The translations under genes and the position numbers were made by a program. A DNA stretch of 34,250 bases from an uncultured Gammaproteobacteria bacterium (GTDB lineage Bacteria; Patescibacteriota; Patescibacteriia; UBA2591; UBA6264): positions 1 to 34,250 of the forward strand of contig CAZXPA010000002.1 in NCBI GenBank assembly GCA_964642485.1, given 5' to 3'. Under the pieces are notes generated by a model. The model searched no databases, was not told the DNA's origin, and saw only the letters and a list, made by a program, of their open reading frames with translations. Every line of letters starts with the position of its first letter. Positions within the stretch are counted from its first letter, which is position 1. This document shows positions 2-32,174 of this stretch, piece after piece.

Positions 2-331
2 TTGCCTGAAATTCTGCCTAAAACCAATGACCTAGACCAATTAATAAGCTGGCGGAGAAGATTCACTCCTAATTCAGAACCAGCAAAACTGATTGAGGCT
101 AGAATGGCCAAGGTTTTGCCAGAAACCAATGACCTGGACCAATTAATAAGCTGGTGGGGAGAAGTCCCTTCTAATTCAGAACCAGCAAAACTGATTGAGG
201 CTAGAATGGCCGAGGTTTTGCCTGAAATTCTGCCTAAAACCAATGACCTGGACCAATTAATAAGCTGGCGGAGAGAAGTCTCTTCTAATTCAGAGCCGGA
301 AAAACTGATTGAGGCTAGAATGGCCAAGGTT
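2..331 (+). repeat. Tandem repeat, 3 units (2-115, 116-217, 218-331; 114/102/114 bp)
   Basis: Each unit starts ttgcc(t/a)ga and ends gctagaatggcc(a/g)aggt. The units are about 90% identical by eye and are in frame. Confidence 0.85.
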
Positions 332-457
332 TTGAAATTAATTTCATCAGAATCAGTTCCTCAGTGGTTTGTCAGAAGAATAGAGCAAGGCAAAATTCCA
401 GGCTTTCTGCTTGAAGAATTTAAAAACAAAGCTGCAGATATCTATCAGTCTTTATAG
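2..457 (+). CDS. 5'-truncated repeat-containing hypothetical protein
   Basis: ORF is open to the window edge. It has three 34-38 aa repeats (LPKTNDLDQLISW..NSEPAKLIEARMAKV) and a unique C-terminus. No recognisable family. Confidence 0.5.
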   Translation: MPEILPKTNDLDQLISWRRRFTPNSEPAKLIEARMAKVLPETNDLDQLISWWGEVPSNSEPAKLIEARMAEVLPEILPKTNDLDQLISWRREVSSNSEPEKLIEARMAKVLKLISSESVPQWFVRRIEQGKIPGFLLEEFKNKAADIYQSL

Positions 458-14153: not shown

Positions 14154-14950
14154 TATTGACTATTTTTTAATTTTTTTAAAAAATCATCTAACTCTTTTGG
14201 TAACCCACTTTTAAACTCTTGCCACCTATTATTTAAATCATAAAAACCTAAATAACAAGCATGTAAAAATATTCTCCCTAATTTTTGTTTGGTTGTTAAA
14301 TTGTTTAATTGTTTAATTGAATATCGCCTGTCCCCAACAATTGGACAATTAATTGATTTAAGATGAACTCTTATCTGATGAGTCCGGCCAGTTGCCGGTC
14401 TTACCTGCAAAAGGGTAAAATCCTTAAATTGTTTTTTGATTTTATACCTTGTAAATGCCGGCTTCTCGTCTTTTATCTTTTTTCTATACTGAACAGCAAC
14501 AATTTTCCCTTCTCTAGTTCTAGCTAAAGGTATATCAATTATTCCTCTTTTTTCTAAAGGCCTGCCATGAACTAAAGCTAAATATTCTTTTTTTATCTTA
14601 CCCTGTTTAAACTGCTCAATTAAGACTTGATACATTTTTTCCGTCCGGGCCACAACCATTAAGCCAGAGACATCTCTGTCTAGACGATGGACAATCCCCC
14701 ATCGTCCTGGCTGACCAACCCCTTTTATCTCTGGATAATATTTTAAAAGCAAGTCAACTAAAGTTTTGTCTAAAGAATATTTAACAGGGTGAACCCTGTT
14801 AAATAATTTCGCCCTTGGCGAAATTCCTGCTCCGCAGGATTTAACAGGGTGAACCAATAAACCGGCTGGTTTATCAACTATTAAAAAATTATCATCCTTG
14901 GTCAGGATGTCTAATTTTATATCAAATTTAGGGAAAAAGTCAACTGGCAT
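14153..14950 (-). CDS. RluA-family pseudouridine synthase (no S4 domain)
   Basis: Motifs DKPAGLLVHP, HRLDRDVSGLMVVART and GRTHQIRVHL. Carries a 20-aa in-frame repeat insert directly after LLVHP. Confidence 0.9.
   Translation of the reverse strand: MPVDFFPKFDIKLDILTKDDNFLIVDKPAGLLVHPVKSCGAGISPRAKLFNRVHPVKYSLDKTLVDLLLKYYPEIKGVGQPGRWGIVHRLDRDVSGLMVVARTEKMYQVLIEQFKQGKIKKEYLALVHGRPLEKRGIIDIPLARTREGKIVAVQYRKKIKDEKPAFTRYKIKKQFKDFTLLQVRPATGRTHQIRVHLKSINCPIVGDRRYSIKQLNNLTTKQKLGRIFLHACYLGFYDLNNRWQEFKSGLPKELDDFLKKLKNSQ
14779..14854. repeat. 60-bp palindromic element, copy 2 (inside the rluA-family gene), plus a 16-bp direct repeat
   Basis: atttaacagggtgaac occurs at 14779-14794 and 14839-14854, exactly 60 bp apart. 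Inner hairpins aatttcgcc-cttg-ggcgaaatt and cctgc-tcc-gcagg. Confidence 0.9.
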
Positions 14951-17226: not shown

Positions 17227-17240
17227 AAAATCATTCTATC

Positions 17241-17265
17241 ATTTTAACAATATAACATTTTAACA
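17241..17265 (-). promoter_or_regulatory. Two tandem extended -10 boxes (TGtTAAAAT) upstream of tRNA-Ile
   Basis: Minus-sense tgttaaaatgttatattgttaaaatgatagaatgatttt, then the tRNA. The proximal box ends 14 nt from the tRNA 5' end. Confidence 0.55.
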
Positions 17266-17409: not shown

Positions 17410-17627
17410 GTTTTATATACACACTTTCAAAAATGCTGAGCATTAAATGAGCAGGTTCTTATAAATTCCGGGTAAGAGATGAAGAATTTGTCAAAGGCAG
17501 AGAGAGCCAACCTTTACCTTACCTTGAATCTTATATGATTCAAGGGTCGACCTCGTTACTGTTAAACAGCAACTGAGTCCTCTAAATGAGGTGATCCACC
17601 CACAGCTTCCGCTACGGGTGCCTTGTT

Positions 17628-17939
17628 CATGTTATTCCCTATGTTTCCATGGGCACGGACTATATCTTCACCCCCTTCTTTCGATCGAAAGGAGGGGGGC
17701 CAACGTATGATAACAGTTTGATTCTCTAATAAACTTAGAGCCCCTGCTATCAAAGGTATAAACCTTAAGTCTCTACGGGGCGAAGCACTCAACGCCTTGA
17801 GTGCTCGCTTCCCACGATGTTGCCTTCATGCCTTTATTTTAGCATAAAATGACTAAAAAATAAAGAGTAAGGGTTCACCGTTATAGTTGGGTTTTTCTTA
17901 AGGATTACTCCCTAAGGTCGCAATTTACAGGTTGTAACC
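17628..17939 (-). mobile_element. Group I intron (312 nt, no ORF) at E. coli-equivalent position about 1498
   Basis: Interrupts AAGTCGT|AACAAGG. The 5' exon ends in U and the intron ends in G. Core-like GTAGAGACTTAAGG and GAAGATATAGTCCGT elements. GCGAC can pair with exon GUCGU, with a U-G pair at the splice site. Confidence 0.8.
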
Positions 17940-18358
17940 ACGACTTCGCCCCTGTTACCAATCCTACCTTATTCCCGCGAACGCGGACTTTCGGGTATTA
18001 CCGGCTTCCTTGGCGTGACGGGCAGTGAGTACAAAGTTTGGGAACGTATTCACCGTACCGTAGCTGATATACGGTTACTAGCGATTCCAGCTTCATGAGG
18101 TCGAGTTGCAGACCTCAATCCGAACTGAGACCGGCTTTGATGGGATTAGCTCCGCCTTACGGCTTTGCGACCCTTTGTACCGGCCATTGTACCACGTGTG
18201 TTGCCCAGGGCATAAGGGCCATGCTGATTTGACGTCGTCCCCACCTTCCTCCGGCTCATCACCGGCAGTCCTCTTAGAGTGCCCAACTTCTTAAAAGAAT
18301 GATGGCAACTAAGAGCAAGGGTTGCGCTCGTTTCCCCACTTAAGGGTACACGTCACCG

Positions 18359-18389
<31 letters not shown>

Positions 18390-18519
18390 ACTAGGTTCCG
18401 ATTTTACGGTCAGTCAACCTTTCGGCTAACCTACAACCTAGCGAGTCAAGCCCTGGTGAGGTTCTTCGCTTAGCATCGAATTAAACCACATGGTCCACCG
18501 CTTGTGCAAACTCCCGTCT

Positions 18520-18551
<32 letters not shown>

Positions 18552-18932
18552 TCCCAGGCGGGATGCTTAACGCGTTAGCTTTTTTACTGCGGCACTGAAA
18601 GGGTCGACACTTCCAATGCCCAGCATCCATCGTTTACGGCGTGGAATACCGGGGTATCTAATCCCGTTCTCTCCCCACGCTTTCGTGTCTCAGCGTCAGA
18701 ACTGTTCTAGCAAGCTGCCTTCGCATTCGGTGTTCCTGCCGATATTAACGGATTCTACCCCTACACCGGCAGTTCCACTTGCCTCTCCCAGTCTCTAGTT
18801 TAATAGTTTTTCTGGCGCTCCCAATGTTGAGCAAAGGGCTTTAACCAGAAACTTATTAAACCGCCTACACACGCTTTACGCCCAGTAAATCCGGATAACG
18901 CTTGTCGCCTTCGTCTTACCGCAGCTGCTGGC

Positions 18933-19380
18933 TGTATACTCATAATAGAGTAATTGCTACGGACTATATCACAATCCTTTTTTATAAATAAAAGGACCCT
19001 CGGCGTATGATAACAGTTTATAATTCCAGATTATCTGGCACCTGTTATCTCATCGCTTAATATTTAGCTTTAAGCGAATCAGTCTCTGAGGGGTTAATCC
19101 CGACTTGTCGGGACAACTTCCCTGCTGATTGCCTATAAGCTGTTTCGTCATAAACGAAATGCAGCAAAATCTTAAAGTTTAGATAAGAATTTTAACCTTT
19201 TCAAACTTCAAGGTTCTGGCAAAGCCAGGTTCTTATAGTTTGGCAATAAGATATTATACCTTTCAAACTTCAAGGTTCTGGCAAAGCCAGGTTCTTATAG
19301 GTTTCCAGCATATAAGCCAAGTTTTTCAACTTCGATTACTCGAAGAAGTCGCGCTCTTTGATAAGACGAAAATTAATTGC
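18933..19380 (-). mobile_element. Group I intron (about 448 nt, no ORF) at E. coli-equivalent position about 516
   Basis: Interrupts CTTCGT|GCCAGCAGC. Core-like CTCAGAGACTGATT and GTGATATAGTCCGT. Shares aaactgttatcatacg with the other intron. Boundaries are ambiguous by 1-2 nt. Confidence 0.75.
19195..19300. repeat. 43-44 bp direct repeat (period 63 bp) inside the position-516 intron
   Basis: acctttt-caaacttcaaggttctggcaaagccaggttcttatag at 19195-19238 and again at 19258-19300, differing by one T. Confidence 0.9.
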
Positions 19381-19821
19381 ACGAAGTTAGCTGCGACTTA
19401 TTCCTGGGGTACACTCAACCGAAGCTTGTTCCCCCAGAAAAGCAGTTTACACTCCGAAAAGATTCATCCTGCACGCGGCGTCGCTCCTTCAGCCTTTCGG
19501 CCATTGAGGAAGATTCTTGACTGCAGCCCCCCGTAGGAGATTGAGCAGTGTCTCAGTCTCAATGAGGCGGATCATGCTCTCACACCCGCTACCCGTCATC
19601 GGCTTGGTAGGCCATTACCCTACCAACAACCTGATGGGCCATAAGCTCCTCAGAAAGCGCGATTGCTCGCTTTACTAAGCACTCAATATGAGTGCTCAGC
19701 ATATGGGGTATTAGCCTCGATTTCTCGAGGTTATTCCCCTCTTTCCGGCAGATTACTAATGTGTTACTCTCCCGTTTGCCACTGCCTGATAAATCAGGCC
19801 GTTCGACTTGCATGCCTTAGA

Positions 19822-19861
<40 letters not shown>

Positions 19862-19933
19862 TTAAAAAAGATTTGATCTAATAAATAAAAGGAATAGATT
19901 GGCTAATTCTCTACCTTTGACAAATTCTTCATT

Positions 19934-19996: not shown

Positions 19997-20080
19997 TTGT
20001 TAAAGAACTGGTTGGGTACTTAGGTACTTAGTTAATTGGGGATTAATTAATTTGCTCTTCCCAATGACCCGATTACCCAA

Positions 20081-20761
20081 TTACCCGATTACCTGATGTG
20101 TCCGCCACTCTTTTACTTTCTGATGATCGCCTGAAAGTAAAACCTTTGGCGCCTTCAGCTTCTTTAGCTTACCAAACTTATCTTTATATGTAAAGACCTC
20201 TGGACGAGTATATTGTGGATATTCAATATTAATTGATGATTTAAAAGAAAAGCTCTCTTCTTCTAAAGATTCTGCTTTAATCACCCCAGGAATTAACCTG
20301 GCAACCGCATCAACAATTATCATGGCAGGGATTTCTCCGCCTGTCAAGATATAAGAACCGATAGAAATTTGTTCATCAACAAACTTTGTTACCCTTTCGT
20401 CAACCCCCTCATACCGACCACAAATTAGAACCACTCTTTCTGTTCTTGACAATCTCCTGGCTGTCTTTTGATCAAGTTGCTTACCTTTTGGGGTTAATAA
20501 AATAATTCTTAATTTTTTATTTATATTTTTGGTTTTACTTAAACTTCTTATTGCTCTATATAAAGGAGGGAGTTTAAGAATCATTCCCGGCCCACCGCCA
20601 TAAGGTTTATCATCTACTGTTTTGTGCTTGTCAGTAGTCCATTTTCTAAGGTTATGAACCTTAATTTTAATGAATTTCTTTTTCTGGGCCCGAGCAATAA
20701 TCGAGGTATTAAAATAGGAATCAAAAATATGAGGAAATATTGTAATAATATCAAACTGCAT
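20081..20761 (-). CDS. trmD: tRNA (guanine37-N1)-methyltransferase TrmD
   Basis: MQFDIITIFP, DDKPYGGGPGM, LICGRYEGVDERV and SIGSYILTGGEIPAMIIVDAV. Confidence 0.95.
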   Translation of the reverse strand: MQFDIITIFPHIFDSYFNTSIIARAQKKKFIKIKVHNLRKWTTDKHKTVDDKPYGGGPGMILKLPPLYRAIRSLSKTKNINKKLRIILLTPKGKQLDQKTARRLSRTERVVLICGRYEGVDERVTKFVDEQISIGSYILTGGEIPAMIIVDAVARLIPGVIKAESLEEESFSFKSSINIEYPQYTRPEVFTYKDKFGKLKKLKAPKVLLSGDHQKVKEWRTHQVIG

Positions 20762-21749: not shown

Positions 21750-21758
21750 AACAAAATC

Positions 21759-21767
21759 ATTTTAACA
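21759..21767 (-). promoter_or_regulatory. Extended -10 box TGtTAAAAT, 9 nt upstream of the rpsP ATG (second copy at 21783-21791)
   Basis: Minus-sense aatgttaaaatgattttgttATG. Confidence 0.5.
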
Positions 21768-21885
21768 TTAGAACATTGGAACATTTTAACATAATCTTTT
21801 AAAAAAGCAATGAGTGTTTTATTTATTCATAGCATTCGCATACATTCGCTCGCCTCGTCTCCGAGTCGGAGCGGGTAGATTGGCA

Positions 21886-27431: not shown

Positions 27432-27529
27432 AATAAAAGCAATTAAACAAATAAACAACTTAACATAAAAATAGTTTAGCAAATTTCTAAATTAAAGCAA
27501 TCTTTTTTATTATTGCTAAATTGCTAAAT

Positions 27530-27538
27530 TGCTAAAAT
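27530..27538 (+). promoter_or_regulatory. Extended -10 box TGcTAAAAT, 8 nt upstream of the M50 protease ATG
   Basis: attgctaa occurs three times in tandem (27512-27537), ending in tgctaaaat-gatttcaa-ATG. Confidence 0.5.
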
Positions 27539-27546
27539 GATTTCAA

Positions 27547-28155: not shown

Positions 28156-28312
28156 TCCCTGCTACTCTCGTAATGCTTGACATTTCTAAGAAATAAAGTA
28201 AAATACAGGTCATCATAATATATAACATGGCAACATGAGAACATTTCCTGCCTGCGGCAGGTAAAAAAAGAAATTTCTATAAAGCAAAATTTCTTATGTT
28301 CCAATGTTCCAA

Positions 28313-28321
28313 TGCTAAAAT
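28313..28321 (+). promoter_or_regulatory. Extended -10 box TGcTAAAAT, 8 nt upstream of the rpsL ATG
   Basis: atgttccaatgttccaatgctaaaat-gaattagt-ATG. Confidence 0.5.
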
Positions 28322-28329
28322 GAATTAGT

Positions 28330-28755: not shown

Positions 28756-28824
28756 GTACTTCGGTAATCAGGTATTAACCCAATCCCTAATCCCCAATTA
28801 ACCAATTAACTAATTAACCAACTT

Positions 28825-29298: not shown

Positions 29299-29414
29299 AT
29301 CATTTTAATATTCTAACGTTTTAACATATTAACATGCCCCCCCCCTCTAATCTCCCCCTCCCAGAGGGACGGGGAGAAAATTGTTAAATTGTTTCATTGT
29401 TAAATTAGCTTAAT

Positions 29415-31715: not shown

Positions 31716-32067
31716 GGGGGTGAAAGGCATCGATAGGAAGATAGAAATGAAAGCGGCTCTTTGTCTTGAGAAAGACATAAAATTTCTCAAAGAAAATAAT
31801 TGCCAACGAAAAGTTAGCTTTTGCTGTTGCTTAAAAAAGCTGCAGCCGCTAAGACTAAAGACTCCTACTATTTAGTTATTAGCGTCAATTCAGTGGGATC
31901 GGTGTTCTGAAGACCTGAACCAGAATACTTAAAAAAATCAGGCTAAGATTTTAGAGATTTGTCTGGTTTAAGCTCTAAAATCCGAAAAAAATTAAACTAG
32001 ACTATAAGAGTAGATGCTCCTCATTAACACTTCTTAGACGGGAGTTCAATTCTCCCCACCTCCACCA
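31716..32067 (+). ncRNA. ssrA: tmRNA (SsrA), tag ANEKLAFAVA
   Basis: 5' GGGGGTG pairs with 3' CACCTCC-A-CCA, giving G3:U70. T-arm GGGAGTTCAATTCTCCC. Tag reading frame GCC AAC GAA AAG TTA GCT TTT GCT GTT GCT TAA at 31802-31834. Confidence 0.9.
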
Positions 32068-32151
32068 CAGAAACAAATTAACAACTAAACAACTTAACAA
32101 TTAAACAAAGAATAAAAAAAACAAAATCAATTCCATGGGATTTTGTTAGAA

Positions 32152-32168
32152 TGTTAAAATGTTAAAAT
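32152..32168 (+). promoter_or_regulatory. Two overlapping extended -10 boxes (TGtTAAAAT x2), 6 nt upstream of the infC GTG
   Basis: atgttaaaatgttaaaat-gattta-GTG. Confidence 0.45.
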
Positions 32169-32174
32169 GATTTA

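Follow-up and report, generated by a model that had tools for sequence, protein, structure and literature searches.

Can a letter of the anti-Shine-Dalgarno (anti-SD) core of 16S ribosomal RNA, whose sequence CCUCC is among the most conserved in bacterial rRNA, be exchanged in a whole lineage, and does the altered 16S tail still pair with messenger RNA? The question is raised by a stretch of 34,250 nucleotides, here termed the window (contig CAZXPA010000002.1 of assembly GCA_964642485.1, positions 1 to 34,250), which carries a 16S rRNA gene on its minus strand. The 16S sequence ends in ...GGAUCACCUCAUUU; on the minus strand, positions 17600 to 17584 read GGTGGATCACCTCATTT, followed by AGAGG. 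The tail begins with GAUCA directly behind helix 45 and has CCUCA in place of the canonical core CCUCC. The changed letter is the A at window position 17587, which we take to be the equivalent of C1539 in E. coli numbering, and, judged from the sequence, the mature 16S 3' end would include A1539. The explanation favoured here, with a probability of roughly 0.68, is that the tail represents a re-specified anti-SD that serves a very small Shine-Dalgarno (SD) regulon, above all the tuf gene, in an order of bacteria that otherwise initiates translation independently of SD sequences. As part of this explanation, and with the same confidence, CCUCA is considered a fixed, lineage-wide substitution in the anti-SD core of a small-genome bacterium of the Candidate Phyla Radiation (CPR)/Patescibacteria.

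The genome to which the window belongs is 646 kb in size (57 contigs, 35% G+C, 91% complete). Named neighbours of the S7 protein encoded in the window are metagenome-assembled genomes of Patescibacteria, Falkowbacteria, Uhrbacteria and Parcubacteria, at 55-72% identity, and the organism is in all likelihood a CPR bacterium. An earlier note on this DNA had proposed a comparison of tails across related genomes. In the window's order, 30 of 55 genomes match a pattern of helix 45 plus tail, and CCUCA is common to 20 of these 30: CCTCATTT is found in 20, CCTCCTTT in six and CCTCTTTT in four. CCTCATTT is carried by every one of the 16 genomes of the window's family that match, and also by members of three further families; CCUCAUUU is invariant across these 20 genomes and four families. 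One further genome of the order has CCUCAUAAA, and in genome G006 (genus g7 of the window's family) the tail after helix 45 is entirely lost (GGAUUAUAUUUC...). An even sample of the class comprised 401 genomes, of which 287 match a general pattern; a letter other than C at 1539 occurs in 10 of them, all in the window's order, and in none of the 387 that belong to other orders. A quick maximum-likelihood tree of 16S loci with their flanks (28 rows; root placed with five outgroup genomes from other orders; one long branch, G052) places the CCUCC families basally and all non-C tails in one clade (Shimodaira-Hasegawa-like approximate likelihood ratio test support 100). Genomes with a U tail form a clade (95) beside an A-tail genome (99). 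Two changes suffice to account for the tail states, C to A and then A to U.

The argument that the altered tail still pairs with an mRNA comes from tuf, the gene for EF-Tu, which lies outside the window (contig 6, 173-1378). Upstream of tuf is the sequence AAAUGAGGU, followed by seven nucleotides and AUG, and this is a perfect 9-base complement of the new tail (ACCUCAUUU). In a pairing screen of 630 open reading frames (ORFs) of at least 45 amino acids, with the tail as read from the window, tuf ranks second, at -11.6 kcal/mol; 0.26% of random intervals pair as strongly as this. Thus a tail-complementary upstream sequence, as anticipated in the earlier note, does exist, but at tuf and with a 7-nt spacer, not in the UAAAAUGA box where the note had placed it.

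The 5' regions of tuf from 47 genomes of the order were set against the tail states; four A-tail genomes (G013, G015, G018 and G028) were excluded because their tuf matches are cut. Six usable 5' ends come from CCUCC-tail genomes: four have AAGGAG, which places a G opposite the C, and two have no SD. With the CCUCA tail there are 16 usable 5' ends, ten of which have (A)AAUGAGG(U), with U opposite the A, while three have C and one has A at this place and two show no clear SD. Four are usable from CCUCU-tail genomes; two have AAAGAGG, with A opposite the U, and two keep AAUGAGGU. No tuf SD is present in any of the three usable genomes of genus g7, i.e. G006, where the tail is lost, and G014 and G031, whose assemblies do not contain the 16S 3' end. 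Among SD-bearing genomes the tuf letter matches the tail in 4/4 (C tail), 10/14 (A tail) and 2/4 (U tail), and a G opposite 1539 is found in 0 of the 18 non-C-tail genomes that have a tuf SD. GGAG and UGAG of the tuf SDs share one register and lie 9 nt before the ATG. When the tail types are compared, the strongest tuf duplex is obtained with the genome's own type in 4/6 (C), 13/16 (A) and 2/4 (U) genomes; the own tail is ahead by 2.4-3.6 kcal/mol in the 16 matched cases and by at most 0.4 in the three cases of C opposite A.

As a control, the tsf gene has an SD-like match (AAGAGGU) in one of 29 genomes only, which is the genome under study. The other gene of this genome with AAAUGAGGU upstream, a methyltransferase-like gene (C20:7498), was without a match among the 54 remaining genomes of the order (E <= 1e-10). 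The tuf pattern is what continued pairing between the tail and the tuf leader would be expected to produce. The odds appear slightly better than even that this is a natural re-specification of an SD/anti-SD pair, in which position 1539 changed twice, from C to A and from A to U, tuf followed each time, and the tuf SD was lost where the tail was lost. Two side observations concern the same leaders. In an 80-kb sample of the A-tail relative G020, a second gene is preceded by AAUGAGGU; and in several families (L197, L204, L206, L211, L215) a short conserved element or hairpin containing CGCGA precedes the tuf SD by 8-15 nt.

At the level of the whole genome, SD sequences are hardly used. Genes were called as long ORFs with the first ATG taken as start (522 ORFs, 82% of the genome). 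One of the motifs GGAG, GAGG or AGGA is present at -18 to -5 in 5% of 499 genes, compared with 7% at the control position, -58 to -45. The remark in the earlier note that GGAGG-like upstream sequences are few therefore extends from the window to the genome, and a genome-wide GGAGG enrichment typical of SD use, named there as contrary evidence, is not seen. The same pipeline yields 42.5% versus 2.5% with 50 kb of E. coli K-12 (40 genes), and is thus able to detect SDs. A purine-rich block is absent upstream of starts, and the frequency of G falls to 0.07-0.15 at -15 to -5. The genome-wide hybridization profile of the tail, also suggested earlier, shows no enrichment: the mean best duplex is -2.36 kcal/mol with -20 to -1 and -2.62 with -60 to -41, and pairing of -8 kcal/mol or stronger is reached by 4.3% of 630 upstream intervals (-25 to -1) versus 3.9% of 5000 random ones. 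A compensated SD used throughout the genome (UGAGG/AAAUGAGG) was considered and rejected, as TGAGG is found six times at -22 to -4 and nine times at control positions, with no enrichment in energy.

SD use is weak in the entire class and nil in the window's order, as seen in samples of 20-91 kb from each relative. A-tail relatives have SD four-letter motifs in 0-9% of genes, and sister families with the CCUCC tail in 6-16%, versus 0-9% in controls; five genomes of other orders in the class have 10-25% versus 6-12%. The sister families with CCUCC tails are just as poor in SDs, and the loss of use seems to be earlier than the change in the tail. C and G are scarce in the upstream regions, which are A/U-rich, and the start codon is preceded by U at -1 in 66% of genes. 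This proportion is the same in 116 operon-internal genes (65%) and in 335 first genes (66%), which marks it as a feature of translation and not of transcription starts. The frequency of U at -1 is 0.33-0.85 in kin across the class (loci L031-L066 and L153-L172) versus 0.25 in E. coli. It may be a start-codon context signal in SD-poor bacteria; one idea is that U at -1 pairs with A37 of the initiator tRNA. A 377-aa ORF with S1 repeats may represent bS1, with 196.8 bits against a strict cut-off of 577 that is itself passed by only 2 of 14 control genomes.

These data can be combined in a tentative order of events. The window's order would initiate almost entirely without SD pairing, at starts that are A/U-rich, G-poor and have U at -1, and because initiation is nearly SD-free the CCUCA substitution could be fixed. 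In many first-in-operon genes, an extended -10 box lies so near the ATG that the mRNAs would be leaderless or nearly so. The tail would still act as an anti-SD for very few mRNAs, principally that of tuf, by pairing with them on the ribosome, and the tuf SD would have been rewritten at each change of 1539: G opposite C, U opposite A and A opposite U. This would be a middle state, in which SD use is down to about one essential, highly expressed gene and the anti-SD is consequently free to change, provided that this gene follows. If true, the lineage would possess an orthogonal-like pair of ribosome and mRNA that arose natively, would document in living organisms how an anti-SD can evolve, and would offer a testable natural example of SD/anti-SD co-evolution. 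There are practical implications as well: SD-based start models mislead gene calling in CPR genomes, and the inference of expression from 16S 3' ends and SD motifs in uncultured lineages is also affected.

A small number of genes do have SD-like sequences. A five-letter SD-like motif at -20 to -4 precedes 21 of 500 genes; about 12 of these motifs are canonical (A)GGAG(G) and four are TGAGG, one of the latter being that of tuf. The genes with canonical motifs are nusA and those of a PEP-utilising enzyme, a BNR protein, a DUF218 protein, a PEMT-like protein and small membrane proteins without a family. With CCUCA, canonical motifs can pair only via a G-A mismatch, at about -6 kcal/mol. Strong canonical SDs of the AAAGGAGG type are kept at seven places (G000 C13:11709, C15:1256, C29:6030, C12:14508, C22:3639, C3:18024 and C56:2619; L173-L179). 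Most of these genes encode short membrane proteins or proteins of no assigned role and have no Pfam family; C12:14508 and C3:18024 are weak paralogues. It is possible that the AAAGGAGG-type genes were recently acquired by horizontal transfer.

Several observations weigh against a re-specified anti-SD. GGAGG itself is found nine times at -22 to -4 versus twice at control positions; that is, the few SD-like genes mostly keep the canonical form. In the 80-kb sample of G020, which has the A tail, motifs of the AAAGGAGG or AAAGGGGG type precede about 9-10 of 66 genes and suit a CCUCC tail better (-11 to -17 versus -6 to -12 kcal/mol); compensation is therefore not general. Of the 14 A-tail genomes with a tuf SD, four have a letter that mismatches A1539, which is C in G001, G007 and G012 and A in G004, and two of the four U-tail genomes keep the U letter; the latter look like laggards after the change from A to U. 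The covariation concerns one gene and approximately two rRNA changes plus one loss, in relatives that are not independent of one another. Many tail states are missing, since 25 of the order's 55 genomes lack the 16S end. Start codons are crude calls, being the first ATG of long ORFs. In addition, a hairpin between CCUC of the tail and GAGG of the trailer is present in the minimum-energy fold but is no better than that of shuffled sequences (z = 0.26), so that it is retained only as an argument from conservation.

The rival explanation that survives best is decay of the anti-SD: the sequence would be unused, the C-to-A change neutral drift, and the tuf match a coincidence or a leftover without function. 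This reading would account for the lack of a genome-wide SD signal in the genome and its kin, for the loss of the whole tail in the genus of G006, and for the fact that most of the few SD-like genes are uncompensated. It also agrees with Amin et al. (2018, PMC6107228), where a variant anti-SD is generally coupled with a lack of SD sequences and no matching variant SD was found. However, the invariance of CCUCAUUU in 20 genomes and four families is contrary to drift, the tuf letter opposite 1539 tracks the tail through three states and one loss, tuf is second among 630 ORFs in pairing with its own tail, and at the control gene tsf 28 of 29 genomes have no SD-like match. Decay is thus considered unlikely. 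The variant-anti-SD set of that paper resembles the present case in the combination of a variant tail with an absence of SD motifs and in the clustering of cases in related lineages with reduced genomes. It differs in its focus, which was on Bacteroidetes, Tenericutes and Carsonella and not on CPR; in the present case, moreover, a single gene is preceded by a perfect 9-nt complement of the tail, and the two covary.

Other systems offer partial parallels to the proposed re-specification. Flavobacterium johnsoniae has SD-blind ribosomes and, according to Naeem et al. (2026, PMC13000453), keeps its anti-SD for one gene, rpsU, and for rRNA processing. The similarities are an almost complete absence of SD use, an anti-SD retained under selection and an SD regulon of near one gene; a link to rRNA processing is a possible further similarity. 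F. johnsoniae has the canonical CCUCC, its SD gene is rpsU and its tuf is SD-less, whereas in the present order a core letter has been replaced, C by A and later A by U, and the gene with the SD is tuf. The only ORF found to resemble bS21, which together with bS18 and bS6 is associated with sequestration of the anti-SD in Bacteroidia, is below the cut-off (24.3 bits versus 27) and has no SD upstream. Within CPR, a subgroup of Parcubacteria lacks CCTCCT, and SD helices are probably not formed there (Tsurumaki et al., 2022, PMC9297842). The passages of that paper on this subgroup likewise describe CPR bacteria without the canonical 16S anti-SD, and give no variant sequence, SD statistics or matching SD. 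As described there, the subgroup overlaps a group that lacks uL1, whereas the present genome has uL1 (192.8 bits), so the uL1-loss link does not apply, and here the change is confined to one order of its class.

Laboratory systems provide a further comparison. Specialised or orthogonal ribosomes with an altered anti-SD and a matching SD were reportedly engineered by Hui and de Boer and by Rackham and Chin. Those constructs share with the present case a changed anti-SD letter paired with a compensating change in the SD; they differ in that they are said to operate beside wild-type ribosomes, whereas the present variant arose in nature, affects the sole 16S gene and is followed by a gene of the organism itself. 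The full-text literature searched yielded no example of a naturally altered anti-SD together with an SD that matches it and covaries with it; supplements of the cited papers may list tail variants.

A second rival holds that the tail is kept only for ribosome biogenesis, either by pairing of CCUC with the trailer GAGG or by recognition by a processing enzyme, with no pairing to mRNA. TTTAGAGG is found behind the tail in most kin that have this tail, and at its place CCUCC-tail kin have AAGGAG, GGAG or GGGAG; in this sense the trailer is always complementary to the tail. A 25-nt inverted repeat, presumed to be a pre-rRNA processing stem, brackets the 16S gene, and ablation of the anti-SD impairs rRNA processing in F. 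johnsoniae (PMC13000453). Yet the covariation of tuf is left unexplained by this reading, the tail/trailer hairpin of the predicted fold does not exceed shuffles in energy, and in G021 and G025 the A letter is present but GAGG is absent from the trailer. As a full explanation, biogenesis is a little less probable even than decay. It is compatible with a re-specified anti-SD, however, as the conserved complement of CCUC in the trailer suggests a second constraint, exerted by pre-rRNA processing. Era, which according to one report (PMC10582724) binds GAUCACCUCC and is missing in most CPR, was not found in this genome, the best match having 73 bits versus a cut-off of 116.

A third rival, put forward in the earlier note, is that the UAAAAUGA box upstream of several genes is a new ribosome-binding site. 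Its AAAUGA is complementary to UCAUUU of the tail, and the box peaks at -14 to -12, which is an SD-like distance. The most enriched words at -20 to -1 are TGTTAA (57 seen, 5.5 expected) and AAATGA (34 seen, 4.9 expected), which together make up TGTTAAAATGA; the UAAAAUGA box is the 3' part of TGTTAAAAT, an element resembling an extended -10. The consensus of the extended -10 promoter is TGnTAnAAT. This motif peaks at -17 and -15, with the -10 hexamer starting mostly at -14 or -12, and is present before 43 of 384 non-internal genes versus 4 of 116 operon-internal genes. AAATGA at -15 to -4 has a similar distribution (29/384 versus 1/116). The identical box stands before tRNA-Ile, and related boxes before tRNA-Leu, tRNA-Ser and tRNA-Glu, those of tRNA-Ser and tRNA-Glu with the -35 elements TTGACT/TTGACA 17 nt upstream. 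The AAATGA box was found in 0/66, 0/68 and 0/66 genes of three kin with the same tail. The AAAUGA/UCAUUU duplex has -2.3 kcal/mol, compared with -7.0 for GGAGG/CCUCC; the upstream TGTT is unable to pair with the tail and fits an extended -10; and the box usually continues with U and not with the GG that pairing would favour. Pairing of the box with the tail is thus very improbable, and the preferred reading of the UAAAAUGA box is an extended -10 promoter.

The box abuts the start codons of first-in-operon genes, which suggests leaderless mRNAs. In the window, the mRNAs of rpsL (28330), infC (32175) and an M50 peptidase gene (27547) are probably leaderless or near-leaderless. There are 100 copies of TAAAATGA in the genome, about 30 of which end arrays of 8-nt units (ATGTTNNA, 3-5 copies) and are followed by 4-8 nt and ATG. 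Leaderless transcripts are abundant in some bacteria, such as Actinobacteria and Deinococcus ('group C' of GeneMarkS-2). Those bacteria also have a -10-like box at a fixed short distance upstream of starts; here, the extended -10 is in tandem 8-nt units and is limited to approximately 9-11% of genes, and the leaderless state is a prediction. Genome-wide, the ATGTTNNA arrays thus make up about 30 promoters, which end in TGTTAAAATGA directly before the ATG. Many intergenic regions consist of 8-nt tandem units (ATGTTCCA, ATTGCTAA, TGTTAAAA, CCAATTAA, AAATTGTT and others), which are found in the window at 28296-28314, 27512-27536, 32144-32169 and 21758-21792, and further such regions are at 29378-29406, 28794-28821, 20060-20093, 14285-14319 and 32071-32125.

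There remains the authenticity of the tail, which depends on the placement of the third 16S exon. The Rfam search of the window detects a single 16S gene (minus strand, 17913-19867, 1324.9 bits), with two inserts that match the group I family RF00028 (17637-17938 at 39.5 bits and 18957-19373 at 32.9 bits). Both matches are below the gathering score of 50, with E-values of 6e-8 and 6e-6 in a 2.9-kb search. The Rfam alignment puts the 3' end (model end 1533) at 17913, inside intron 2; it squeezes the last model positions into the intron and so does not show the true tail, and was rejected in favour of the exon-3 reading. On the minus strand, exon 3 is AACAAGGCACCCGUAGCGGAAGCUGUGGGUGGAUCACCUCAUUU, followed by AGAGG, and it is joined to ...GAAGTCGT (end at 17940) once the 312-nt insert 17939 to 17628 is removed. 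A U closes the 5' exon and a G closes the insert (...GUCGU|G...AUG|AACAAGG). Contigs of intron-less relatives from public runs have ...ACGACTTC or ...ACGACUUC directly behind 17627, which fixes the junction of exons 2 and 3. The exon-3 alignment of the earlier note is therefore upheld by intron-less contigs and splice letters, with the group I match sub-threshold. Both inserts are predicted to be spliced out. We take the intron 2 site to be after U1498 and that of intron 1 to be near position 516, as counted on the E. coli sequence.

Contigs in runs X2 (record 1), X5 (record 13) and X6 (record 23) span the tail with 0 differences in 17584-17627; X2 is from the study of the probable source sample, and X5 and X6 are from two other studies. 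These contigs differ elsewhere, in the intron and spacer, and are thus not copies of this assembly. With the identical tail in independent contigs and in 20 related genomes, the change from CCUCC to CCUCA noted earlier is not an error. A search for other 16S copies gave one locus only and no contig with CCUCC. An assembly or sequencing artefact or a dead 16S copy, which might be suspected in a metagenome-assembled genome with one copy and two inserts, can practically be dismissed, as the same sequence recurs in other runs, studies and genomes, the 16S match is full-length, and the genome, which is 91% complete, has no further 16S.

Features of the 16S locus and TGTTAAAATGA/TAAAATGA boxes in the window (coordinates in window positions)
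Feature	Position	Strand	Basis or remark
16S exon 1	19380..19867	-	Rfam alignment
Group I-like intron 1, ~448 nt, GUGCCAGC site	18932..19379	-	RF00028, 32.9 bits; boundaries +/- ~2 nt
16S exon 2, end GAAGUCGU at 17940	17940..18931	-	5' boundary +/- ~2 nt
Group I-like intron 2, 312 nt, no ORF, after ...GUCGU, terminal G	17628..17939	-	RF00028, 39.5 bits, and intron-less contigs
16S exon 3 (AACAAGG...CCUCAUUU)	17584..17627	-	Junction confirmed by intron-less contigs
End of helix 45 and 16S 3' tail, GGUGGAUCACCUCAUUU	17584..17600	-	Sequence, independent contigs, relatives
GAGG in trailer, complementary to tail CCUC (CCUC-AUUUA-GAGG)	17579..17582	-	Relatives; predicted fold
Inverted repeat, 3' arm, 25 nt, brackets 16S gene	17479..17503		Partner 19908-19932, 96% complementary
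Inverted repeat, 5' arm, same 25-nt pair	19908..19932		
TGTTAAAATGA box, 12 nt upstream of tRNA-Ile (gene start 17226)	17239..17249	-	Same box as before protein genes
TAAAATGA box, 6 nt before rpsL ATG 28330	28316..28323	+	8-nt units 28296-28314
TAAAATGA box, 4 nt before infC GTG 32175	32163..32170	+	TGTTAAAA units 32144-32169
TAAAATGA box, 6 nt before ATG 27547, M50 peptidase-like gene	27533..27540	+	
TAAAATGA box, 7 nt before ATG 21749, 107-aa ORF	21757..21764	-	8-nt units 21758-21792

Some minor properties of the inserts and of the rest of the window were also observed. Intron 1 has a 53-nt direct repeat (19189-19241 and 19251-19303, 91% identical). In a contig from run X4, 709 other letters replace 247 letters of intron 2 (joint 17642 to 17890), and this is a different insert at the intron 2 site in a relative. 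The window also has a tmRNA gene and 12 tRNA genes by Rfam, and ARAGORN is concordant. The tmRNA (31716-32067) has the tag peptide ANEKLAFAVA and is located between fusA, which it follows directly, and infC, whose start codon is GTG. At the left end of the window (21-334), a tandem repeat of 102-114 nt, with approximately 2-3 copies that are 86-92% identical, is inside an ORF that runs off the contig.

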